From IMG/VR virus record IMGVR_UViG_3300025030_000118, positions 1-58,921 of that record: a DNA stretch of 58,921 nucleotides, one strand, 5' to 3'. Within the stretch, counting starts at the first letter, position 1; every line of letters starts with the position of its first letter. The notes beneath the pieces were generated by a model. That model searched no databases, was not told where the DNA came from, and saw only the letters and a list, made by a program, of their open reading frames with translations. A program made the translations under genes and the position numbers. Below are positions 3,982 through 56,474 of the stretch, one piece after another. Source of the DNA: a virus (lineage: Duplodnaviria > Caudoviricetes).

Positions 3982-4020
3982 CTCCGTAAAGTTGCGGAGG
4001 GGTTGACGGAATAAATTAAA
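3982..4020 (+). repeat. 39-bp hairpin-containing element, copy 2
   Basis: CTCCGTA-AAGT-TGCGGAG then GGGTTGACGGAATAAATTAAA; lies at the GC-to-AT transition. Confidence 0.85.
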
Positions 4021-5704: not shown

Positions 5705-5747
5705 AAGAAATATGAAAAAATACAGTATAATATAATGATAAAAGAAT

Positions 5748-24350: not shown

Positions 24351-25175
24351 ATGCAAAGTTATGAAACTTATACTTTTAGTGAAACAATAAGTGGATCAAT
24401 AATAAAAACTTATCATAATCCAGGAGATCATTTAAGAATTGATTTAACTCCTATTGGAGATGGATCGATTACTGAATTTATTCTTCCATCTTACTATTTA
24501 AATTATATATTATATGCTAATTATTTAATACCTGGAGGATTTATAGAATCAGGTATGGGTAATTATCTTTTATTATTTAGAGATATATATCCTTTAATTC
24601 ATAATGTAGATTACATAATAGATACATCAAATGGAGTTAAGTTTATTTTAGCTGATCCTCCAAATGAGGGAGAAATTGTAAGAATTATAAAAAGAAGTAT
24701 AATGAGAAATTGGTATGAACCAATTCCTGAATCTTTTTATACTTTAATAAATAATACATCTTTTAGAATAGATTTATCTCATGCTAATTTAGAAAGAGGT
24801 CAGCATAAATTAGCTGTTGAGTATTATAATACTTTAGGAAATATAATTACTGATTATTTTGATGTTCCTTTTTATGATGATTATGATGTTAGAGCTGATG
24901 ATCTTAATGAAATGTTTTTAAGTTTTATTTCTAGTTTTAATTATAATATTATGGGGAATGGAGAATACACATTTAATAGAAATTCATCAAAAAGTATAAT
25001 ACAAATAAATAGATCATATAATGGAGTTCCAATTATTAATAATTTAGATATATCTTATTTTTCAAGGGATACATCTGAAAGAATAATTTCTGGATATAAA
25101 GAAATTAATAGTTATCTTGACAAAAGTTTAAATATAGATTATAATTTAAACGGAGAATCAATTTTGATAGTATGA
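24351..25175 (+). CDS. Tail appendage paralog 1 (N-terminal modules only)
   Basis: KLAVEYY...VPFYDDYDVRADDLN shared with next two genes. Confidence 0.5.
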   Translation: MQSYETYTFSETISGSIIKTYHNPGDHLRIDLTPIGDGSITEFILPSYYLNYILYANYLIPGGFIESGMGNYLLLFRDIYPLIHNVDYIIDTSNGVKFILADPPNEGEIVRIIKRSIMRNWYEPIPESFYTLINNTSFRIDLSHANLERGQHKLAVEYYNTLGNIITDYFDVPFYDDYDVRADDLNEMFLSFISSFNYNIMGNGEYTFNRNSSKSIIQINRSYNGVPIINNLDISYFSRDTSERIISGYKEINSYLDKSLNIDYNLNGESILIV

Positions 25176-26938
25176 GTATATTTATAGATTTTTATAACAA
25201 TAGAATAAACAAGGCTACTTCTATATCTAAAGTTTATTCTATTCCAGGATCCAACGATATTTATTCTGGTATATATTTATCTGGTGTTCAAGATGGGTTT
25301 AATAAAAATTTTACAATAAATGGATTATCTGGAATTGGATATGTTTCAATTCTAACATTAGATGGTTTTCTTCAGATAATTAATCAAGATTATACATGGA
25401 ATATTAATCAAATAGTATTTAATATTGCTCCACAACCTCAAAATGTTTTATCTATACAAATTACTAATAGATATTCTTATGATGATATATTATCCTGGGG
25501 ATCTCCTATAAGTAATAGTTATTATAGTTTAGAAGAATATGGAATGAGGTTAAATGTATCTTTTACAAAGATAGAACCAGGAGAAAATAAGCTGTCTGTA
25601 GAGTTTTATATTGGAAATGATTTATTTAAAGAAATATTAACTGTTCCTTTTTATGATGGATATAATATTCAGCCTAATGATCTTAATTATTTCAATACTA
25701 TATTTACAAATAAAATAAATAGTGAAAATGATGATAGTGGAAGATATGTTATTAGTTATTCAAGAGATAGATATCCTGATTGTATTCAACAAATTACTAA
25801 ATATAAAAGTGATAATATAAGTGAAGTATTAGATATAAACCATGATTATGATGGATATATTTCAAATATACATGAAGTTGTATATAATGAATCTCTTCCA
25901 CTTAAAAAAGAAGATTTATTCATACAGAGAGATAAAAATGATAATGAATTAATATCTAAAATAGTTATTACTAATGAAAACTCTAATTTTAATTTATCTT
26001 TATTATGGGAATCGACTGATATAGTTAGTTTTGATTATGATAGTCATTTTTATCCTATATATAATGATGATAACTATATATATGGTATATATAGTGTAGA
26101 TAATAATAACTGGAAAATATGGAGAAACGGATATAATGATAACGTAGAAACAATATATGATTTAAATGCCAGTATATTATCTAACTGGGTTATTGATGAT
26201 AATTATATTTATTTATTAATATCCAATATAGGAGATTCTAATAGTAGATATATTAAGAGAATTAATAAAGATGGAAGTGGATTAATTACATTAGGATCAA
26301 TACCTGATAATAGACATGCTAGTTGTATGAAAGTTATTGATAATTATATATATATGATTAATACTATAGATGTTGGTCTTCCATTTACTGTAAATTTGGA
26401 ATATGTTAGCCGATTTATTAAGACTGATTGTTCAGGATTTGAAGATATTAAGGTCTTTAATAGTATATCAAGAAAATATGGTACTATTCCATTCTATCAT
26501 ATTATAAGTGATATTAATTATATTTACTTCTTGAGAATAAATAGTAATAATAGTGAGTTATATAAAATAGATAAAACAGATATGTCTACTGAATTAATGG
26601 TTTCTGGTTTATATAATCCTGTTAATTTACTTTTAGATGGTGATTATATATATATTACTGAATATAACTCTTTTAATCTAATAAAAATAAATAAGAATAA
26701 TAATGAAATAACTAATGTTTTAGAGACATATTTACCTAAAATAATATTAAAAAATAATAATGATATATTTTTATTATCTGATGGAGAATATAGTTTAAGA
26801 CAATATAGTAATAATATTTTTTATAATATAAATACAGATATTAATGGAGTTAATTTTTTCATAAAAGAAATTAATGGAGAATTAAAAATATTTAATATTG
26901 GATCATTAGCTATACAGATATTGAGGTATGTAGGATAA
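25172..26938 (+). CDS. Tail appendage paralog 2 with beta-propeller
   Basis: Repeated DDNYIY...RINKDGS blades. Confidence 0.6.
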   Translation: MSIFIDFYNNRINKATSISKVYSIPGSNDIYSGIYLSGVQDGFNKNFTINGLSGIGYVSILTLDGFLQIINQDYTWNINQIVFNIAPQPQNVLSIQITNRYSYDDILSWGSPISNSYYSLEEYGMRLNVSFTKIEPGENKLSVEFYIGNDLFKEILTVPFYDGYNIQPNDLNYFNTIFTNKINSENDDSGRYVISYSRDRYPDCIQQITKYKSDNISEVLDINHDYDGYISNIHEVVYNESLPLKKEDLFIQRDKNDNELISKIVITNENSNFNLSLLWESTDIVSFDYDSHFYPIYNDDNYIYGIYSVDNNNWKIWRNGYNDNVETIYDLNASILSNWVIDDNYIYLLISNIGDSNSRYIKRINKDGSGLITLGSIPDNRHASCMKVIDNYIYMINTIDVGLPFTVNLEYVSRFIKTDCSGFEDIKVFNSISRKYGTIPFYHIISDINYIYFLRINSNNSELYKIDKTDMSTELMVSGLYNPVNLLLDGDYIYITEYNSFNLIKINKNNNEITNVLETYLPKIILKNNNDIFLLSDGEYSLRQYSNNIFYNINTDINGVNFFIKEINGELKIFNIGSLAIQILRYVG

Positions 26939-28741
26939 ATGGCTGTAAATTTAGATTTTATTTTAAACCAAGAATGTAATGGTGAAATTTCAAGAGTTTA
27001 TTCAGCTCCTGGGTTTTATGATTCTCATCTAAATATATCCTTATCGGGTATTCAGGATGGATTAAATAAAAATTTTACAATAAACGGATTATCTGGAATT
27101 GGATATGATCCGGTTTTAATCAAAAATAACTCATTACAAGTAATCAATGAAGATTATATATGGGATGGACAATCCTTAATAACCTTTAATAGTGCTCTTT
27201 TTTCACATGATACATTAAGTATACAAATTGGAAAAGTTTTATCTAATGGTTCAGTTTGGGGGATTCCTATTAGTTCTTCATGTTATTCTTTAACATCATC
27301 CATAATAGTTACAATAGATATGAATTTGGCTGTTTTAGAACCAGGATATCAAAAATTAGTTATTGAATATAATAATAATGATGGTTTATTAGTAAGAGAA
27401 ATTTTTAATGTTCCTTTTTACTATAAGTATTTAATCCAAAAAGATGATATGAATGAATTAGTGGATGATATTAATAACAATATAAGATTAATAACCGATA
27501 TAGATGGTAACTGGGAAATAAATAGGAACACATCTACAGATTCAATCAATTATATTATAAGAGACTATTATGAGTATGATAATACTTATTTAAGAGATTA
27601 TATTAAAATTAATAGAGATTACCAGGGATTAATTACAGAAATAGAAGAAAGTACCCATACAGGAGGATCTGGAGGAGAATATCTTAATCCTCAAGATGAT
27701 AGTGATAAAAAAACAATAATTAAAAGAAACTCTGATGGAATAGTACAAGAAATAAGAAAATATAATAGTTCTAGTATAATAGGAAACTTAAATACTATTT
27801 CAAACTTTTTTAATTTAGAAACTGGTTCTTTGTTCATTATGAACTTTTTAAATGATAATGATTATTTATATTTTGTTATAAGATATAGAGATAGTTATAA
27901 CTTTAAAATAAAAAGATTGAACTTAACAACTGATGTGATAGAAGATGTAACATATATAACTGGCTATATTCCTTTAGTATGGGATAAGGATAATGATTAT
28001 TTTTATATATTTTGTAACAAAGATGGAGAAAATAGTCAAGTATTACTAAGAGTTAAAATTGATGCATCTGAAACATTAGAAATAGGAAATATAGATTCTT
28101 CTTATAGTTTATATAATGGATGTTTAAAAAGTATAGATAATTATTTATATATTATTTATTATAAAGAAATAGATAATATTTTAGTTCAATTTTTAGGAAG
28201 AATGTTAAAAACTGATACATCTTCTTTATATGATATTATTAGATTTAGATATATGGATATACCAGATTATAGAAATTTTAATAATCATATATCCTATGAT
28301 AATAATTATATCTATATATTAGAAATATATAAAGATAATAGTAAAATATGGAAAATAGATAAATCAGATCTTACCTTTTCTTCTATAGTAAGGGATATTT
28401 ATAATCCTTATTTCATATTAATTAATGACAATAATATATATTTATCTGAGTATAATACATGTAGAATATTAAAGTGTGATAAAGATGGATCTAATTTATC
28501 TTATATAGTTGGATCAGGAGAATATCCTAATGATTTAGAATATCCATCTAATATTTATATATATAATAATAAAATATTCTGGACGGGAAAGGGAATAAAG
28601 TCCATAGAGAATAGTAATTTAGATGGATCAAATAGATCTATATTATATTCTACAAATAATCCATTAGATCAGTTGTTTGTATATAACAATAAAATGTATA
28701 TAGTTGAAAGGAATCAGTATATTATTAGAATAGTATACTAA
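26939..28741 (+). CDS. Tail appendage paralog 3 with beta-propeller
   Basis: DNDYLY/DNNYIY blades, SNLDGSNR; colinear with 25172-26938. Confidence 0.6.
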   Translation: MAVNLDFILNQECNGEISRVYSAPGFYDSHLNISLSGIQDGLNKNFTINGLSGIGYDPVLIKNNSLQVINEDYIWDGQSLITFNSALFSHDTLSIQIGKVLSNGSVWGIPISSSCYSLTSSIIVTIDMNLAVLEPGYQKLVIEYNNNDGLLVREIFNVPFYYKYLIQKDDMNELVDDINNNIRLITDIDGNWEINRNTSTDSINYIIRDYYEYDNTYLRDYIKINRDYQGLITEIEESTHTGGSGGEYLNPQDDSDKKTIIKRNSDGIVQEIRKYNSSSIIGNLNTISNFFNLETGSLFIMNFLNDNDYLYFVIRYRDSYNFKIKRLNLTTDVIEDVTYITGYIPLVWDKDNDYFYIFCNKDGENSQVLLRVKIDASETLEIGNIDSSYSLYNGCLKSIDNYLYIIYYKEIDNILVQFLGRMLKTDTSSLYDIIRFRYMDIPDYRNFNNHISYDNNYIYILEIYKDNSKIWKIDKSDLTFSSIVRDIYNPYFILINDNNIYLSEYNTCRILKCDKDGSNLSYIVGSGEYPNDLEYPSNIYIYNNKIFWTGKGIKSIENSNLDGSNRSILYSTNNPLDQLFVYNNKMYIVERNQYIIRIVY

Positions 28742-37478: not shown

Positions 37479-38776
37479 TAGTCATCTATAATCCATTCAT
37501 CTGAATTTGTACTAGTTATTATTACAGTTTCTTCCTCTTTACTTATTTCTCTTATATTAGAATTATCCATATCCCAAGATATTGGTATTATTTTTTTACC
37601 AGGACCTTCTCTGGAAAGCAAGCAATAAAGATGCATTAGTTTATTTTCTCTCATTTCATCACTTTGGTATAATGCCCAGGAAAAATCTAAATACCTATTG
37701 ATTCTTTTAGTAAAACTAACTTGATCTTCATGTGGCTCATGTCTTACTTTTTTTATTTTATCATCTTTTTTTACTTTTTCAACCTCAGATTGCATTTGAG
37801 AAATAAGTACAACTGGCATATTTAATTCTTGTTGTATTTTTTTATTTATAGATAACATTACTTGAGTAATTTGTCTCCATTCATCAAATTTATTACTAAT
37901 ATCAATATGAGATAACTGATCAATAAAAACTATTTGAGTATTATATTTTTCTATACAATATTTTGTGTGTTTGTATATGTCTCTGACGTTACAATCTTCA
38001 TTTACTATTATTAGTTTTCCACCTTCTGTTTGACATACAGATATATTTTTTTCGAATTTTTCAATATCTTCTTCGTTTAAGCTTCCTTTTCTTATTTTAT
38101 CATAAGATATATTAGATAAAACAGCATCTAATCTTCTAGCTATTCTATCTCTTGTCATCTCAAGGGAGAATAATAATACATTAACTCCTTGCTTAAGAAG
38201 ATTATTAATAAGATATAAGGAAAACCAAGTTTTACCTACTTTAGTATCTCCTAGTATTAAATGTAATTCACTCGGCAAAAAACCCTGACTTTCTTGATCA
38301 AAAGATGGGATTAAACTTTTTATACCATTTTCTTTTATATTCAATACATGATCTTCGTAATCTTGTAGTCTGTCTGATTTGTTATACTCAAAATAAACTT
38401 CTTTTTCATCTTGATGTGGAGACATACATTCATATTCTATTTTGTTTAATAAATATGTTTTAATATCTATATTTTCATCTAAATTTTTAATTTTTTCTAT
38501 TATACCATAAATATTAGATAAGTTTTTTCTCCTTATTATTTTTTTCATTATTATATCAATATCTAATGGATCTTCTATTTTATCTATCTGATAGTCCTCT
38601 AGTTCTTTAAATCCTGGAACTTTTTTATATTCTTCCCAATAGTCTTTTATTTCTTTGAAAGCTTTAGAATAATTATCGTTCAAAAATAAACTTTGATCAA
38701 TCTTATATTTAGGACTATCTATTAAATCTGGATTTTGAATTATACAGTTAATTAACATGTTCTCATAATTTGCCAT
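37478..38776 (-). CDS. dnaB: Replicative DnaB-like helicase
   Basis: GDTKVGKT, FSLEM, VFIDQL, LISQ. Confidence 0.88.
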   Translation of the reverse strand: MANYENMLINCIIQNPDLIDSPKYKIDQSLFLNDNYSKAFKEIKDYWEEYKKVPGFKELEDYQIDKIEDPLDIDIIMKKIIRRKNLSNIYGIIEKIKNLDENIDIKTYLLNKIEYECMSPHQDEKEVYFEYNKSDRLQDYEDHVLNIKENGIKSLIPSFDQESQGFLPSELHLILGDTKVGKTWFSLYLINNLLKQGVNVLLFSLEMTRDRIARRLDAVLSNISYDKIRKGSLNEEDIEKFEKNISVCQTEGGKLIIVNEDCNVRDIYKHTKYCIEKYNTQIVFIDQLSHIDISNKFDEWRQITQVMLSINKKIQQELNMPVVLISQMQSEVEKVKKDDKIKKVRHEPHEDQVSFTKRINRYLDFSWALYQSDEMRENKLMHLYCLLSREGPGKKIIPISWDMDNSNIREISKEEETVIITSTNSDEWIIDD

Positions 38777-38792
38777 TGTTATTCCTTTATCT

Positions 38793-39572
38793 CTAAAATA
38801 ATGGTTTTAATTTTTTTATATTATTAGATTCTAGTAGAGATTCGAGATAAAAAGATTTTTCTGTTCTATAATCTATATCTCTTTTAACTTCTTTTTCTAT
38901 TAGTTTACCTTTAATTAAGCTTATAATATTTAGAGCATAAGATGATATATCTTTTATTGGACAGTTTGCAGTAATTATAGTTGGTTTGTTTCTTCTATTT
39001 CTATATCTTATGATATAATCTAAATAGAATTCTATATAACTTTTATCTTTTGTATATTCTCTAGATATATCATCTATAACTAAAAAATCTATTTCTTTTA
39101 TTTTTTCTATAAAATCTCTTGTTTTGTTAGAAAACCTATCATCTAAATAAGATATTATTTCTGACAAAGTAGTAAAGAACGGTTTATATTTTTTAGTTCT
39201 TATTGATTCTTTTAATACACATACTGATAACATTGTTTTTCCAGCACCAAGACGACCCCATAAATAAAGTCCTATTCCATTTTCATATGCTTTATCTATA
39301 CTATTTATATATTTTTTTACTGTGTTGTAAGCATTTTTATCATTGTTGTTTTCTTTTTCGAAATCTTCTAGTTCTAGATAATGATATTCTTCATATATTC
39401 CACAAGAGTTATATATTTTCCTTATTTTTTCCTCAACTACACAATAACAATCATTATTATTGACTTTTCCAGTATTGTTACATTCTTTACAATAGTTAAT
39501 TTTTGAATATCTAATATATTCCGAAGCATCGATTTTATTCATTTTGGATAGTTTTTCAGAGTCAAATTTCAT
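38793..39572 (-). CDS. DnaC/IstB-like helicase loader
   Basis: N-terminal Cys cluster, GLYLWGRLGAGKT, LVIDD, TIITAN. Confidence 0.85.
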   Translation of the reverse strand: MKFDSEKLSKMNKIDASEYIRYSKINYCKECNNTGKVNNNDCYCVVEEKIRKIYNSCGIYEEYHYLELEDFEKENNNDKNAYNTVKKYINSIDKAYENGIGLYLWGRLGAGKTMLSVCVLKESIRTKKYKPFFTTLSEIISYLDDRFSNKTRDFIEKIKEIDFLVIDDISREYTKDKSYIEFYLDYIIRYRNRRNKPTIITANCPIKDISSYALNIISLIKGKLIEKEVKRDIDYRTEKSFYLESLLESNNIKKLKPLF

Positions 39573-40714
39573 TTTTTATCCTCTTTATACATATATGCAT
39601 ATTTTCTCATAATATCGATAGATGGTGGAGTATCGATCCAATTATCCCCAGCTTCTTTTATAAAGTTTTTATATTCTTCATCATTAATCCTACAATCATT
39701 TTTGGCTTCTAGTATTATCCTTACAAACACTTTATGTTTTTTATCTATTTCTCTTTTCTTTTCTTTAAATTCTTCACTAAATAATAATGTTCCGTTCTTG
39801 TATAATTTTATTATGTCTTTTATATTCATTTCTCTTTGAGATATATCAATATCTTCTTTATTGAAAGGAAGATTCCATTCGTTTTTATTTTTATTTATAA
39901 TATTTAACGTCCTTCCAATTTGAGGAAGAGAATAATATTTTAATGTCATAGGTAATTCATCACCATCAAATACCATTCCATCATATTTTTTACTTATTGA
40001 GTCTTCATATACGCCCCTTATACATTTAAAAAGATCTTCTAGTTTTATATCTCCATCATTTTTTAGAAGTTTAGCCTCTCTGAGAGATCTTGAAAAAAAT
40101 GATTTACTTATATCTTTTAGATTGTATTCACTAAACATTCTCATAGATATATCATATAGATTGTAATCTGAAAGTTCTTTTTCAACTGGAGGTGGTACTA
40201 CTATTTGTCTTAGTTCTTTTTTCTCCTGACAGTTTTCGATTGTTTTTGATTCTATTTTAATTTCTATTGGTGTTGGTGTTGGATTTTCTTTACATAAATA
40301 TATTTTATCATTTTCGATATATATCATACCATTAATTTTTTTTATTATTTTTTCTATTCGTATTTCACTTTCATTTATATTTTGAGATATTTCTTTCAAT
40401 GTTAATCCTATTTTTTGTATCCATGTATTATTGTGTTTAAAACCATAATGATATTTAATTAAATTAATTATAATTTTCATTGTTATATTTTTAGTAATTA
40501 TACCAATATAGTCTAATATCTCCACAGGCATTACTATATTATTATTTAGTTCTAATAAATTTAATATTTTACTATCAACAAATATACTATAATTCCATAA
40601 ACTGTTTTTACATTCCTCACAAAACGGTAAATTCATTAAATTAATATTTTCATTATTTTTTACTATAATTTTTTCTTCTTTGGCACCCTTTTTGGAACAA
40701 TTTTTACATATCAT
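39569..40714 (-). CDS. Putative replication initiator (Zn finger + winged HTH)
   Basis: CKNC...CEEC, LTLKEISQNINES; first gene of loader-helicase-primase operon. Confidence 0.45.
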   Translation of the reverse strand: MICKNCSKKGAKEEKIIVKNNENINLMNLPFCEECKNSLWNYSIFVDSKILNLLELNNNIVMPVEILDYIGIITKNITMKIIINLIKYHYGFKHNNTWIQKIGLTLKEISQNINESEIRIEKIIKKINGMIYIENDKIYLCKENPTPTPIEIKIESKTIENCQEKKELRQIVVPPPVEKELSDYNLYDISMRMFSEYNLKDISKSFFSRSLREAKLLKNDGDIKLEDLFKCIRGVYEDSISKKYDGMVFDGDELPMTLKYYSLPQIGRTLNIINKNKNEWNLPFNKEDIDISQREMNIKDIIKLYKNGTLLFSEEFKEKKREIDKKHKVFVRIILEAKNDCRINDEEYKNFIKEAGDNWIDTPPSIDIMRKYAYMYKEDKK

Positions 40715-40744
40715 AATTAATATTCCTTATATATTGTTTTTACT

Positions 40745-40773
40745 ATTATATAATAAAAAAAAGATATTGTCAA
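40745..40773 (-). promoter_or_regulatory. Leftward sigma70-type promoter
   Basis: TTGACA-17-TATAAT on minus strand. Confidence 0.8.
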
Positions 40774-40786
40774 ACCTATTTTGATA

Positions 40787-40814
40787 TTGACAATATAAAT
40801 ATGTATGTTATAAT
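40787..40814 (+). promoter_or_regulatory. Rightward sigma70-type promoter, now firing into the IS
   Basis: TTGACA-16-TATAAT with extended TG. Confidence 0.75.
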
Positions 40815-40968
40815 AGAAGAAAAGAAGGTGTTTTTGTCCTCTTTAACCATTGAGAGAAATTCCCTCCCTTCAGGTAGGGGTTATAAATCAGGGTAAATTT
40901 TAGGGGCTAGAGATTTTGTAAAATACAGTATAATATAGGTAGAGATAATAATTTAGGAGCTTATAAAT

Positions 40969-41382
40969 ATGTATCACTTAGATAAAACAAGTAACTCTGT
41001 TTTTTCTTTATTTTTCCACTTTATAACTGTAGTAAAGTACAGACAAAGGATTTTTACAGATGATACTATAGTATCCAATGTAAAACTAATTATGGATGAG
41101 ATAGCTAAAGATTTTGATGTTTTAATTATAGAACAAGAATGTGGAGAAGATCATATACATATTTTATTCAAAGCTAAACCGACCTTAGATATTACTAAGT
41201 TTATAAATATCTTAAAAGGTCACAGCTCTAGGAAAATTAGAGATAAGTATAAAGATTTCTTAAAGGATAAGTTATGGGGCGATAATTTATGGTCTCCGTC
41301 TTATTTTTTGGCTACTTCAGGTAATGTAACAATAGATATTCTTAAAGAATATATAGATAATCAGAGGTCTTTGCAGGAATAA
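40969..41382 (+). CDS. tnpA: Y1 HUH transposase
   Basis: VVKYRQRIF, EDHIHIL, LWSPSYF, EYIDNQ. Confidence 0.95.
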   Translation: MYHLDKTSNSVFSLFFHFITVVKYRQRIFTDDTIVSNVKLIMDEIAKDFDVLIIEQECGEDHIHILFKAKPTLDITKFINILKGHSSRKIRDKYKDFLKDKLWGDNLWSPSYFLATSGNVTIDILKEYIDNQRSLQE

Positions 41383-42599
41383 TGATCACTTATAAATATA
41401 GATTATATCCAAATCGAGACCAGATAGATTTGATGTGGTCTCATTCTAGTAAACTAAATTGGGTTTATAATTATTTTTTAGATCAGAGAATACAAGAGTA
41501 CAAGACTAATCATAAGTCCATCAGTCGTAAAAAACAGCAGTCAGAATTAGTAGATCTTAAAAACAAATATCCGGACCTGAAAGAAATACATTCTCAGGTC
41601 TTACAACAGGTCCCTCTTAGATTATATAAGAGTTATAAAGTTTTTTTCAAGAGATGTAAGTTAGGACAGGGGCCACCTAAATTTAGATCCTGTAAGAAAT
41701 TTTTCACTCTGGTTTATCCTCAGTCAGGTTTCAGTATACAGGATAATATTTTACACACCAAGGTTTATGGAGATATTAAATTCTATAAATCTAGACCAAT
41801 AGAGGGTAATATACAGCAGATTCAGATCACTACTTATAAAAATAAATGGTATCTTTGTGTACTAACAGATCACATTAGACCATCTTCAGATACGGACCTA
41901 AATAAAATGATAGGTATAGATCTAGGAATTACTAATCTTGTAGCGACCAACGAGGGTGAAATCATAAAGAACAAGAATCATGCTAAATATTTTGACAAAC
42001 AGATCAATAAATTAAAGTCAAGGAGGGATAAAAATTGTAAAAAGTATTCTAGGAAATCTAAGGAACTAACTAAGACCATAAACAGATTGTACGACATGAA
42101 GAATAATAAGACCAGGGATTTTCTTCATAAGGTTTCTAAAAACCTATCCAGTAGATTTGGTACGATCTTTATAGAGGACTTAAATCTTAAGACCATGTCA
42201 GAATCTGATATAACTGGATTAAATAGGGAGCTCAGAAACTCCCAATTATCTAGATTTGCAGGTATGGTTATTTACAAGACTAAGAGGACTTTAAAACTGA
42301 ATCCATTTAATACTTCTAAGACCTGTAGTCAATGCGGACATGAATATAATATGCCTTTACACATCAGGGTTTTTAGATGTCTTAATTGTGGTCTTGTAAT
42401 AGACAGAGATGTAAATTCTAGTAAAAACATTTATTGCCTGGGACGGGCCGTTCTATCTAGTAATAAGGAGTTAGAAATGATAGAATGTACTGGATTTTCA
42501 ACTATGACGATCCGGGAATACTGGTCTAATCAGCCAGCACTGCAGACTAAAGATGATAGGAGAGATCCAAAAGAATCTCCTGTCTTTAGGCAGGAGTAG
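41382..42599 (+). CDS. tnpB: RNA-guided endonuclease TnpB, RuvC triad intact
   Basis: YKYRLYPN, GIDLG, IEDL, TSKTCSQCG...CLNCG, DRDVN. Confidence 0.95.
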   Translation: MITYKYRLYPNRDQIDLMWSHSSKLNWVYNYFLDQRIQEYKTNHKSISRKKQQSELVDLKNKYPDLKEIHSQVLQQVPLRLYKSYKVFFKRCKLGQGPPKFRSCKKFFTLVYPQSGFSIQDNILHTKVYGDIKFYKSRPIEGNIQQIQITTYKNKWYLCVLTDHIRPSSDTDLNKMIGIDLGITNLVATNEGEIIKNKNHAKYFDKQINKLKSRRDKNCKKYSRKSKELTKTINRLYDMKNNKTRDFLHKVSKNLSSRFGTIFIEDLNLKTMSESDITGLNRELRNSQLSRFAGMVIYKTKRTLKLNPFNTSKTCSQCGHEYNMPLHIRVFRCLNCGLVIDRDVNSSKNIYCLGRAVLSSNKELEMIECTGFSTMTIREYWSNQPALQTKDDRRDPKESPVFRQE

Positions 42600-42624
42600 T
42601 TCAAATGATTATATAATTGAAACA
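42430..42624 (+). ncRNA. Predicted omegaRNA/reRNA; guide approx. 42605-42624, 5' boundary approximate
   Basis: Inferred from TnpB biology: scaffold overlaps tnpB 3' end and right end, guide is the adjacent flank. Confidence 0.55.
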
Positions 42625-42687
42625 CAATTAGAAAATCTATTGACAAAATTATTAAACGATTATATAATTGAAACACAATTAGAAAAT
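42605..42687 (+). repeat. 32-bp direct repeat x2 (42605-42636, 42656-42687), one mismatch
   Basis: A(T/C)GATTATATAATTGAAACACAATTAGAAAAT, 51-bp period. Confidence 0.95.
42640..42668 (+). promoter_or_regulatory. Consensus promoter of ssb-dnaE-helicase-ruvC-recA operon
   Basis: TTGACA-17-TATAAT; AGGAGG RBS at 42688. Confidence 0.85.
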
Positions 42688-42700
42688 AGGAGGAAAAATT

Positions 42701-43420
42701 ATGGGAACTGGAGAATATGGTTTCGAGGCTGCTGAAAAAGGATCGAATGAAGTAGCAGAAAAAAAGAGGCAAGGACAAGGAGGAAAAAAGGAATTTTCAA
42801 TGGAAGATTTCCTAAAGAGAAATTTTAGGCTAAAAAATATTGGAGATGAGTCAGCTATTAGATTTTTAGAAGAAGATGAGAGTAAATCAATTCTAACTTA
42901 TAAGAAACATACGATTCAAACTGGAACAGGGTTTAGACATCCTGCATGCTGGGGAACAGGTTGTCCTTTTTGTAAAAAGGGAAATAAACAAAGAACATCT
43001 ATACTTATGAATATTATAGATAAAAGAGATAATTTGGTTAAAATATTTGAGATCAATGCAACAACGTGGGGATGGTTTGTTGCATATAAAAGAAGATTAA
43101 AGAAAAGTGGAAAGCCAGATCTTTTATCCGATAGAGATTTTGTTATTGCGAAGGCTTCCGATAAAGGAGATTTTAATATTACCTATGATGATCCTTCTCC
43201 TTTAACAGATGATCAGAAAAACATGAAAAGATGGGATCTTTCTAAAAAAGCCAGTCCAAGACCTGTGGAAGAACTTAAGAAAATGTTTCCTTCTTTTTTT
43301 GAAGACGATGAAGAAACTCCTTCTTCTCCACCATTTGATACAAATGTTACAGAAGTTAAAGAAGTTACAGAAGATCTTCCTAGTGATGATGATCTTTTTC
43401 CCGATTTTGATAAAGTGTAA
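42701..43420 (+). CDS. Single-stranded DNA-binding protein (gp32-like)
   Basis: IRFL, H...C...CPFC Zn site, acidic tail ending DDDLFPDFDKV; before polymerase. Confidence 0.7.
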   Translation: MGTGEYGFEAAEKGSNEVAEKKRQGQGGKKEFSMEDFLKRNFRLKNIGDESAIRFLEEDESKSILTYKKHTIQTGTGFRHPACWGTGCPFCKKGNKQRTSILMNIIDKRDNLVKIFEINATTWGWFVAYKRRLKKSGKPDLLSDRDFVIAKASDKGDFNITYDDPSPLTDDQKNMKRWDLSKKASPRPVEELKKMFPSFFEDDEETPSSPPFDTNVTEVKEVTEDLPSDDDLFPDFDKV

Positions 43421-43442
43421 ATAATTATCATTAGGAGATATA

Positions 43443-46400
43443 ATGTACGTTAATCTTCACTGTCATACTGAATACTCAACATTAGATGGTCTTGCAAAGA
43501 TCAAGGACTATATAAACAGGTGCAGGGATCTAAAAATCCCTGCACTTTCAATTACTGATCATGGAAACGTAGGGGGTCTTTTAGATGTTTATCTAAAATG
43601 TAAGAAGAATAATATAGTTCCCATACTTGGTATGGAGGCTTATCTTGTTGATAATTTAGAATCTATGTTTTCAAGAAAAATTCAAAAAAAGAATCATTTA
43701 TTGTTAATAGCTAAGAACTTAAAAGGATATCAAAACTTATTAAAAATAAGTACAGATAGTAATATTCATGGTTTTTATTATAAGCCTACAGTAGATTATG
43801 ATATTTTAAGAAAATATGGTGATGGTATTATAGCTAGTTCAGCATGTATTGCTGGAGAGATTCCAGAAGCAATTCTAAATAAGGATCTTAATAAGGCAGA
43901 ATTACTATTAAAAAATTATTTAGGAATATTTGGAGATAATTTTTATTTAGAAATGATGCCATCTAGAGATGATAGACAAAAGGAAGTCAATTTAGGACTT
44001 GCTTATTTATCTAGAAAGCATGGAATAAAAACTATTATAACTAATGATAGCCACTATATAAAACAGGAAGATGCTAAGGTTCATGAAATTTTAAAATGTA
44101 TACAAATGAACAAAAAATATGATCCAAATAATATGAGATTTGGAGTAGACGACTATTTTATTATGGATGAAGATCAGATAAGATCTTACTTCAATAAATA
44201 TCATCCAGAAATATCAGAAGATTTAATCAATAATAGTTTTAAAAATATAGAAGATATAGTATCAGGATATAATATAGAGATACCATTAAACCAGATATTA
44301 TTACCTAAATTTAAAATAGAAGATGAAAACTTTCTAAAACAAAAAGAAAAATATGTAAATAAATATGATTTTATTAAAAATGAATTGGATGGTTTCTTAT
44401 TATATTTATGTTCAAAAAATTGGAAAAAGTATGGATTTAAAGAAAATATTTATAAAGAAAGACTTTTATATGAATTAAAAGTTATATGTAATATGGGCTA
44501 TTCCAGCTATTTTCTAATAGTATGGGATTATATAAAATGGGCAAAAGATAGAGATATTATGGTTGGTCCTGGACGAGGGTCTGGAGCGGGGAGTTTAATA
44601 TCTTATATATTAGATATTACAACAGTAGATCCTATAAAACTGGATTTGACTTTTGAAAGATTTTTAAATCCAGATAGAGTTAGTATGCCTGATATCGATT
44701 CGGATTTCCAGGATAATAGAAGAGAAGAAGTAATAGACTATATATGTAAAAAATATGGAGAAAGAAACTCTTGTAATATTACAAATTATAATAAGATGAA
44801 TGCAAGAGGAGTAATAAGAAAAGTATCTTCTGCATATAATTTAGATTTCCAAGATGTAAGTAAATATATAAAAATAATAGAATCCTCTTATGATATTAAG
44901 TTATTATCAATTAGAGATATATTTAAAGATCTTAATAAGAATAAGTGGAAAATATTTGATGGTTTTGGAGATGTAGATAAAATTAAAGAAATATTTAAAG
45001 TTTCATCTGTAATGGAAGGTGTTATATCTAATGATAGTATACATGCTGGAGGAATATGTATAAGTGATGAAGATTTATCTAATTATACAGCACTAAAAAG
45101 AAGCAAAAAGAAAGATAATAAAGACGTAAATATGATTTCTACTCAATATGATAAAGATACCTTAAAGGAAATAGGTCTTTTGAAATTTGATATATTAGGA
45201 GTATCTTATCTTAATGTGATAAAAAATACTATTAATTTAATAAAAGAAAGATATAATAAAGATATTATATTAGAAGATATATCTTTAGATGATAATAATA
45301 TTTATAGGGATCTTAGTATAGGAAAAACTATAGCAATTTTTCAACTTGAGAATAATGTTCCAAAAGGTGTATTGAAAAAAATAAAAGCAAATTGTTTCGA
45401 GGATGTTGTTATTACGAATGCTTTAATTAGACCAGGTCCTTTATCTAATCAAATGGATACAATGTATGCAGAGAACAAAGAGGATCCAAGTAGAATAAAA
45501 TATGATCATCCTATAATGTCTAAAGTATTAGGAAAAACTCATGGGGTTATAGCATATCAAGAGCAAGTAATGGAAATGTCTAAAGTTCTTGCTGGATTTA
45601 ATAATATTCAGGCAGATACTCTAAGAAAGGGAATGGGAGATAAGAATATAGAATATTTTAACAAGCTCAAAATTGAATTTATTGATGGATGCAAAAATAA
45701 AAATAATATTGATAACAATATATCTAATAAAATATGGGATATAATTATCAGGTTTGCTGGATATTCTTTTAATAGGTCTCATTGTGTATGTTATTCATTA
45801 TTATCATGTTGGTGCGCATGGCTAAAATATTATTATCCTTTAGAATATATGCTATCTTGTTTACAGATACAAGGAGGAGATAGATATGAGATATTAATGA
45901 AAGAATCAAAAAGAATAGGAATTAATATATTAGCTCCAAATATAAATCATAGTCAAGAATCATGTTCTATTTATAATAATTCTTTATTAGCTGGTTTTGA
46001 TATAATAAAAGGAATAAGAACACAAGATGTAAAAATATTGATTAATAATAGAACATATAAAGATTTTAAAGATATTGTTTTAAAAACTAATAAATATAAG
46101 ATCGGTAGACAATGTATTATTTCATTATTGAGATTAGGGATAATTCCAAAAAATATGATAGAGGATGAATATTCAGTAAAATCTATTGTAGAAAATATTG
46201 ATGATTATATAAAATATGTAGTAAATTCTAAATATAGTTTATTTGAAACTGTTTCTGGTATTCCAAAAATAGAAGAATATCTAGACAAGGAAATAGAAGA
46301 TTTCGAAGAGAAAAGCTATACAAGTAATATTTTTGCAAGATCTTTAATGGATAAAGTAGAAATCATAAACAAAAAGAGATCTTTTCAATATGAAGATTGG

Positions 46401-56228: not shown

Positions 56229-56257
56229 TTGACTTTATTTTTGAAATATTATATAAT
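56229..56257 (+). promoter_or_regulatory. Sigma70-type promoter
   Basis: TTGACT-17-TATAAT. Confidence 0.75.
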
Positions 56258-56285
56258 AGAAATATAAAAAATAGGAATATTTGAA

Positions 56286-56474
56286 ATGATTATATATTTG
56301 AAATTATATATAAGAACTATCTATCTATTTGAGAAGTTTTTATGTTATATAGGATATCATGATTTATCAATATTAATCGATAATAATGATAATAGATGTT
56401 ATTGTTGTATAAGATGTGATAAAATCTTTTATGAAAAAAATGATGACGGAGTATTAAGAATAAGGAGAGAATAA
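56286..56474 (+). CDS. Small Cys/His protein
   Basis: LCYIGYHD...CIRC. Confidence 0.5.
   Translation: MIIYLKLYIRTIYLFEKFLCYIGYHDLSILIDNNDNRCYCCIRCDKIFYEKNDDGVLRIRRE

Follow-up and report, generated by a model that had tools for sequence, protein, structure and literature searches.

Can a TnpB nuclease carried by a phage-borne insertion sequence (IS) act on the promoter of the phage's own replication operon, or is a near-match between its guide and that promoter left alone? The question is raised by IMG/VR virus record IMGVR_UViG_3300025030_000118 (Duplodnaviria; Caudoviricetes), whose positions 1 to 58,921 make up the whole record and are called the window below (58,921 bases, rated 37% complete, 26.8% G+C). 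Between two rightward promoters of the replication control region, P1 and P2, lies an IS200/IS605-family element of 1758 bp (40847–42604, plus strand), which has the same orientation as the operon and encodes the transposase TnpA and the nuclease TnpB. The 32 nt directly behind the right end of the element (arm 1, 42605–42636, plus strand), the first ~16 of which would form the guide of the TnpB omegaRNA, recur at 42656–42687 (arm 2, plus strand) with a single mismatch, and arm 2 covers the -10 box of P2. The element is probably a selfish IS605-family insertion of the ordinary kind, situated at the border of an older duplication of a promoter segment, with arm 2 spared by the mismatch in the seed of the guide.

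The repeat and promoter P2

P2 (42640–42668, plus strand) is the promoter of the ssb-dnaE-helicase-ruvC-uvsX operon and matches TTGACA-17-TATAAT at 12/12 positions. Arm 2 spans the P2 spacer, the -10 box, the start region and the leader, and the ribosome-binding site (AGGAGG, 42688–42693) and the ATG (42701) of the SSB-like gene follow directly. The two arms are identical at 31/32 positions, the mismatch being T at 42606 versus C at 42657 (guide position 2), and arm 2 lies 51 nt downstream of arm 1. The pentanucleotide in front of arm 2, ATTAA (42651–42655, plus strand), differs solely at position -5 from TTTAA (40842–40846, plus strand), the insertion motif in the left flank of the element and the presumed target-adjacent motif (TAM) of TnpB. 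An earlier note on this DNA, made from its letters alone, had described both the recurrence of the 32-mer and its position after ATTAA over the -10 box of the replication-operon promoter, and the repeat search and the promoter match confirm each of them.

Taken without gaps, the repeat extends to 34 nt (42603–42636 versus 42654–42687, 97% identity), the last AA of the element also matching. It is the only repeat of at least 90% identity among 20 of the 23 repeat families in the window, and none of 100 dinucleotide shuffles gave two matches to the 32-mer. A near-match of 16 nt is common, as 30 of the 547 TTTAA sites have another 16-mer with at most one mismatch in the window; hence, the view that a 16-nt match is in itself improbable was rejected. 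It is the length of 32–34 nt that marks the repeat as a true duplication. The -35 box of P2, at exactly 17 nt, lies in the spacer between the arms (19 nt); this spacer is present once, and P2 can therefore be no by-product of a simple tandem duplication. P2 looks native rather than a product of the duplication, and arm 1 looks like an extra copy of the -10/leader segment set upstream of the native promoter. When the element is removed from the sequence, the identity between the arm contexts reaches 4 nt (TTAA) into the left flank versus 2 nt (AA) into the element end, which hints, weakly, at a duplication that reaches across the insertion point.

A third, partial copy of the guide exists at 56286–56303 (plus strand; 17/18 identical, mismatch at position 12, TTGAA before it), together with another guide-like copy at 56245–56262 (3 mismatches). 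Both of these -10 copies are situated in an intergenic stretch (56230–56303) that also holds a TTGACT-17-TATAAT-like promoter. A motif that recurs in -10 regions of the phage thus includes the first ~18 nt of the arm, and its copies suggest a phage promoter family with a common extended -10 context. The proposal that C at position 2 is the derived base was dropped as too weak; the copy at 56286 has T, and the copy at 56245 aligns ambiguously.

Genes, ends and presumed guide of the element

The tnpA gene (40969–41382, plus strand) encodes a Y1 (HUH) transposase of 137 aa, which matches PF01797 over profile positions 1–121 of 121 (E = 2.7e-37). Its translation shows an HIH motif and a C-terminal SYF tyrosine, and both motifs are presumed here to play their usual roles in TnpA. 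The tnpB gene (41382–42599, plus strand) encodes a protein of 405 aa with the Pfam domains HTH_OrfB, OrfB_IS605 and Cas12f1-like TNB, and the protein aligns to the ISDra2 TnpB structures (8bf8/8exa/8h1j) with E = 8e-26. In an alignment of 29 sequences, D180, E265 and D343, which we take from their motif positions to be the RuvC triad, are invariant, as are C315, C318, C333 and C336, which form two CxxC pairs. The nearest TnpB homologues are only ~61% identical and ~372 aa long, and relative to them the protein carries a C-terminal extension of ~30 aa (42480–42599, residues ~367–405). Since the last TnpB residues resemble the usual C-terminal end of the homologues, the extra residues look like an insertion within the region that also encodes the presumed omegaRNA. 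One related locus, L094 (41% identity), matches all 405 residues.

The element has neither terminal inverted repeats nor a target duplication, and the flanks TTTAA and ATGAT are not duplicates of each other. The right end (42577–42604, plus strand) consists of a hairpin (42577–42596) and the terminal motif TAGTTCAA, which ends at 42604. The right-end motif GTAGTTCAN was found in 46 of 170 related loci (48 occurrences), usually 80–150 nt beyond the TnpB match and each time with its own preceding hairpin, and in most related loci the end motif is GTAGTTCAC. In an alignment with three related elements, conservation continues through GTAGTTCA and the sequences diverge immediately afterwards. The shared end motif and the divergence right behind it fix the boundary between scaffold and guide at 42604/42605. 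In one locus (L162), two right-end motifs lie 155 nt apart.

On the left side, the stretch from P1 to the left hairpin has no TTAA other than that within TTTAA at 40842–40846. The left-end imperfect hairpin (40862–40880, plus strand) is situated 15 nt inside the left junction and resembles the right-end hairpin; it is the best upstream match to the latter (7 mismatches in 20), its DNA fold is weak (z 0.58), and L094 carries a similar left hairpin. Related elements carry TTTA[A/T/G] at the position of the left motif. Thirteen related loci have a left-hairpin candidate within 6 mismatches; their flanks, read by eye, comprise 7 TTTAT, 1 TTTAA, 1 TTTAG, 2 CTTAN, 1 TTAA at the edge of the locus and 1 unclear case; a script tally gives exact TTTAA in 1/13. 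Four less certain left-end candidates (L037, L113, L149 and L162) also have TTTAA. Two of these, the metagenome loci L149 and L162, hold the same related element with an identical right hairpin in two contexts, both after TTTTAA, and their flanks diverge just upstream of the TTTAA motif. The IS608-style rule, which relates the bases 5' of the hairpins to the cleavage motif, was not used as evidence. The Y1 TnpA, the subterminal hairpins without inverted repeats or target duplication, and the left pentanucleotide with its related right motif place the element in the IS200/IS605 family. As regards mobility, it is present in a single copy in the 58.9-kb record, and no empty site was found.

The presumed omegaRNA scaffold, formed by the 3' end of tnpB and the right end, is placed at 42380–42604 (plus strand) by the family rule, its 5' limit being approximate. 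Its predicted RNA fold has z -2.98 versus shuffles; the Rfam search matched no omegaRNA-type family and returned four sub-threshold chance matches inside ssb/dnaE. Judged by sequence, the assignment of the guide to the flank from 42605 on (the first ~16 nt of arm 1) and of the TAM to TTTAA appears sound because the right-end motif recurs across loci, the left motif is TTTA[A/T/G], and SisTnpB7 uses TTTAA and TTCAC (PMC11043419). The earlier note had likewise ended the element at 42604 behind a hairpin and TTCAA, taken the guide from the right flank and equated the TAM with the left motif TTTAA, and the sequence, the end-motif loci and the left flanks bear it out. Its further point that the filled allele is without a target holds as well, as TTCAA stands in the place of the TAM, and so does its remark that the RuvC acidic residues are present and that this is no classical TldR, these residues being invariant across the alignment.

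Probable insertion at the edge of an older duplication

The favoured explanation can be set out as follows. An IS200/IS605 element with TnpA, a nuclease-competent TnpB and an omegaRNA would have inserted 3' of the only same-strand TTTAA of the control region, at a site bordering, on the 5' side, the upstream copy of a P2 -10/leader segment that had already been duplicated locally, and would thereby have taken over arm 1 as a guide that nearly matches arm 2. Expression of tnpA and tnpB would come from P1 (40787–40814, plus strand; TTGACA-16-TATAAT with TG before the -10), which now reads into the element, and from the element's own signals. The TnpB–omegaRNA complex would cut genomes without the element at TTTAA plus arm 1, and recombination would then restore or spread the element. 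Simultaneously, the element's own junction would be protected, with TTCAA replacing the TAM. Arm 2 would be a bystander at which the position-2 mismatch, with or without the TAM difference at -5, prevents the R-loop, and P2 would be neither cut nor meaningfully occupied. The insertion would be tolerated through the complete promoter P2 that remains between the element and the operon. As for the site, a crude gene call based on open reading frames (ORFs) gives 95% coding sequence and, counted over both strands, 22 TTTAA sites between genes. No more than two TTTAA sites fall in the control region, each on a different strand, which left 40846/40847, at the border of arm 1, as the single place for an insertion here in the orientation of the operon.

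Several points weigh against this explanation. The repeat starts exactly at the end of the element; if the 22 intergenic TTTAA sites were equally likely targets, this would be a coincidence of about 1 in 22 within the window. It comes down to the presence of the element in the control region as such, and the actual odds probably exceed these few percent, given that a complete downstream promoter keeps the operon expressed at this very spot. No IS-free relative or allele was found in the searches and the four runs examined, and no RNA run is among the six sequencing runs (two studies) that hold the sequence. Furthermore, if TnpB had the tolerance of SisTnpB7 discussed below, arm 2 might still be cut.

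The searches for relatives, in which records of this genome itself or of very close ones may be missing, covered several collections. A megablast search of INPHARED with 38000–46000 gave no match. Scans of IMG/VR found none with the SSB-like protein, TnpB, the right-end 28-mer or the repeat 30-mer, and the DnaE scan gave just 8 loci at 26–34% identity. An exact 27-mer scan of metagenome contigs gave no match, and a scan of genome contigs with the TnpB protein found none. Of the alignment-based scans, one (A1) gave 80 loci at 24–33% identity and the other (A2) 80 metagenome loci, the closest of the latter being 59, 47, 46 and 41% identical. No contig joins 40846 to 42605 in four runs; contigs drop rare variants, so this is weak evidence.

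The coincidence at the element end would be accounted for by an alternative in which the duplication arose after the insertion and the link between element and repeat is causal rather than due to chance, either through a compensatory rearrangement or gene conversion that rebuilt the promoter, or through a copy of the P2 -10/leader segment placed beside the right end. The arms form the sole near-perfect repeat among the 20 of 23 families and start at the last two bases of the element, the estimate for chance adjacency is a few percent, and the identity of 31/32 implies a recent event or homogenisation. Nevertheless, the unrepeated spacer with its perfect -35 box at 17 nt means that a simple tandem duplication cannot have made P2. 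At the 47 other GTAGTTCAN occurrences, the guide 16-mer never recurs within the same locus (at most 2 mismatches), which shows that the element family does not generate such repeats and led to the rejection of a guide copy as a general property of this IS group. In addition, we know of no IS200/IS605 chemistry that makes flank duplications, which also counts against an origin after the insertion. Such an origin is regarded as unlikely.

Possible action of TnpB on arm 2

Whether TnpB would act on arm 2 depends on how far a TnpB tolerates changes in the TAM and in the seed, and the characterised enzymes differ in this respect. SisTnpB7 cleaves NTTAA as well as TTTAA, position -5 being free, and it tolerates single mismatches on a strong TAM and not on weak TAMs (PMC11043419). 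The TTCAC end motif abolishes cleavage by this TTTAA-TAM TnpB (PMC11043419). In the case of Ymu1 TnpB, described in a preprint, mismatches in nt 1–4 abolish unwinding, single mismatches at positions 4, 7 and 10 lower cleavage more than 100-fold, and stable states that bind and do not cut arise from TAM-distal mismatches. TldRs are nuclease-dead, TnpB-like repressors of temperate phages; their binding requires the TAM and a seed of ~6 nt, and in TldR phages the phage's own fliC promoter has conserved mutations in TAM and seed that preclude self-targeting (bioRxiv 2023.11.30.569447). Guide length may also switch an active TnpB between regulation and editing (PMC13507860).

Applied to the window, these comparisons suggest that ATTAA may offer no protection and that the lone C at position 2 may be the only barrier; the weight which the earlier note had put on the ATTAA difference appears overrated, position -5 being free in the one characterised TTTAA-TAM enzyme. 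Since TAM-proximal mismatches block R-loop initiation, and thus binding as well as cutting, no occupancy of arm 2 would be expected. By this comparison, the position-2 mismatch argues against occupancy of arm 2 rather than for a repressor mode, and the suggestion in the earlier note of binding without cutting at the second copy finds no support in the published work on either side. A completed R-loop on arm 2 would be expected to mean cleavage, by analogy 15–21 bp from the TAM (~42670–42676). An escape from self-cleavage is a plausible origin of the arm 2 mismatch, with a precedent in the fliC promoter of TldR phages; because no IS-free relative or allele was found, escape is inseparable from the null explanation of a chance insertion into a pre-existing duplication.

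Cutting of arm 2 at a low rate, either as a fitness cost repaired by the phage's UvsX and RuvC or as a break that stimulates recombination near the replication genes, draws on the behaviour of SisTnpB7 on NTTAA and on single mismatches with a strong TAM (PMC11043419), on the intact nuclease triad, and on the recombinase and the resolvase encoded in the operon. However, repair would leave the target in place, given that every genome copy has it. The -35 box of P2 would be lost if the arms underwent single-strand annealing, yet the two-arm form alone is present in two samples and no variant is listed at 42606 or 42657. The Ymu1 data, with the loss of cleavage of more than 100-fold at positions 4, 7 and 10, point the same way, and low-rate cutting seems improbable.

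Binding of TnpB–omegaRNA to arm 2 without cutting would tune P2 and turn the complex into a TldR-like repressor whose nuclease is still present. The target overlaps the -10 box and the start site, where TldRs exclude RNA polymerase (bioRxiv 2023.11.30.569447), 30/32 further bases match, and a switch by guide length has been reported for active TnpB (PMC13507860). Against this stand the seed mismatch, which blocks R-loop initiation and hence binding, whereas binding without cutting needs TAM-distal mismatches or short guides, and the expectation that an active enzyme would cut once its R-loop is complete. The TldR hallmarks (dead RuvC, lost tnpA, decayed ends) are also absent. The chance of such tuning is judged slender. 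Equally little credence is given to the broader proposal that a mobile, nuclease-competent TnpB acts on P2, be it by transient occupancy that tunes the promoter or by low-rate cuts that feed recombination-dependent replication via UvsX and RuvC.

Assembly and occurrence of the two-arm form

The repeat was checked in contigs from Logan, whose assembler is independent of that of the IMG/VR record; the underlying data may be the same. Runs X1 and X3 are two samples of one study, possibly the source of the record, and do not represent independent biology. In run X1, one contig spans 38505–45500 and passes through both arms. In run X3, a record of 81 nt covers 42607–42687 with 0 differences, running from arm 1 through the spacer into arm 2, at a depth of 11.4 versus 14.3 in the neighbouring contig. 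Only the two-arm form was seen in these two samples. Run X3 is without contig cover over 41542–42477 despite 0.98 of the sampled words; the filter drops records, and nothing is drawn from this gap. An assembly artefact, which the earlier note had named as a way for its reading to fail, can practically be dismissed: although the arms share an identical core of 30 nt, which breaks de Bruijn graphs, and the X3 contigs end at the arm borders, the X1 contig and the X3 record both cross the arms.

Another groundwater study contributes runs X5 and X6, both from a single sample, in which the dnaE region is represented by short fragments within 43264–44752 that are almost identical to the window (0–5 differences, depth ~2–3); among the fragments listed, none reaches the element or the repeat. 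These fragments place the phage, or a close relative of it, beyond the source study.

Genomic context

The control region sits between leftward replication genes and the rightward operon, and the promoter scan found three perfect sigma-70-type promoters in it. Besides P1 and P2, a consensus sigma-70-type promoter faces the leftward genes (40745–40773, minus strand; TTGACA-17-TATAAT, 12/12 match). According to the annotation searches, the leftward genes comprise a 381-aa ORF, an AAA+ loader-like protein and a DnaB-like helicase. The rightward operon encodes an SSB-like protein, DnaE (Pfam), a helicase, a RuvC-like resolvase and a UvsX-like recombinase; its first gene, that of the SSB-like protein (42701–43420, plus strand), matches phrog_14578 with E = 6.5e-12 and is without a Pfam match.

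Other repeats exist in the window. A G+C-rich repeat of 39 nt (2603–2641 and 3982–4020, 87% identity) has a CTCCGC...GCGGAG stem, is intergenic at both places and could represent a terminator common to the two or a small repetitive element. The stretch 24863–27454 contains diverged internal repeats (133 nt at 75% identity, 25223–25355 versus 26987–27119) and a 46-nt repeat family at 65–80% identity, and these internal repeats point to paralogous or repeat-containing genes. An identical stretch of 18 nt with TATAAT is shared by the element interior upstream of tnpA (40920–40937) and an intergenic site (5717–5734); by rough arithmetic, one or two such 18-nt pairs are expected by chance at this composition.

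Relation to known systems and significance

The closest published parallel in its motifs is SisTnpB7 from Sulfolobus islandicus REY15A, which also uses the TAM TTTAA and a guide from the right flank and whose end motif shields the filled site (PMC11043419). The end motif is TTCAC in SisTnpB7 versus TTCAA here and GTAGTTCAC in most related loci. SisTnpB7 is archaeal and thermophilic, the two being likened by motifs, and a near-cognate second site is not described in the accessible portion of that report (PMC11043419). ISDra2 shares the protein family (E 8e-26) and the tnpA-tnpB layout with the present element. In contrast, ISDra2 resides in a bacterial chromosome rather than a phage, and its guide is without a paralogous near-target. 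Its TnpB reportedly recognises the TAM TTGAT, differing from TTTAA here. The homing and retention model put forward for ISDra2, in which the element-free joint is cut and recombination follows, is what would be expected here as well (bioRxiv 2023.03.14.532601).

TldRs resemble the present TnpB in being phage-borne relatives of TnpB whose guide matches a promoter, and the paralogous promoter of TldR phages, with changes in TAM and seed, carries the same signature as arm 2 (bioRxiv 2023.11.30.569447). However, TldRs have lost the RuvC residues, tnpA and the transposon ends, all of which are intact here, and TldR guides match the repressed promoter perfectly in TAM and seed, whereas the promoter copy in the window is the mismatched one (bioRxiv 2023.11.30.569447). 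The element departs from a TldR in all three defining features (a dead nuclease, the loss of tnpA and of the ends, and a promoter match that is perfect in the seed) and, as far as its sequence tells, should not be filed as one. Free-standing phage homing endonucleases are selfish nucleases that cut sibling genomes and spread with co-conversion of the flanks (PMC13565253), as the TnpB would do here; the difference is that recognition would be RNA-guided and set by the flank and that the element could also transpose via TnpA. Literature searches, none of them aimed at that question, turned up no active TnpB with a natural second target.

If the ordinary reading is true, this is one more IS605-family insertion: a groundwater phage that is otherwise unrelated carries an intact TnpA/TnpB element in its replication control region, and TnpB would act there like a phage homing endonuclease. 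The locus also provides two naturally paired sites, TTTAA before a perfect guide match and ATTAA before a position-2 mismatch, which let one ask how much discrimination in TAM and seed a wild TnpB needs when a paralogous target lies next to it. Were arm 2 bound or cut, a flank duplication would have handed a promoter target to a mobile nuclease, a possible start of a TldR-type factor; and the tuning of P2 or its cutting at a low rate, if true, would make the element an extant transitional form on the way from a selfish TnpB to a domesticated TldR-type factor.

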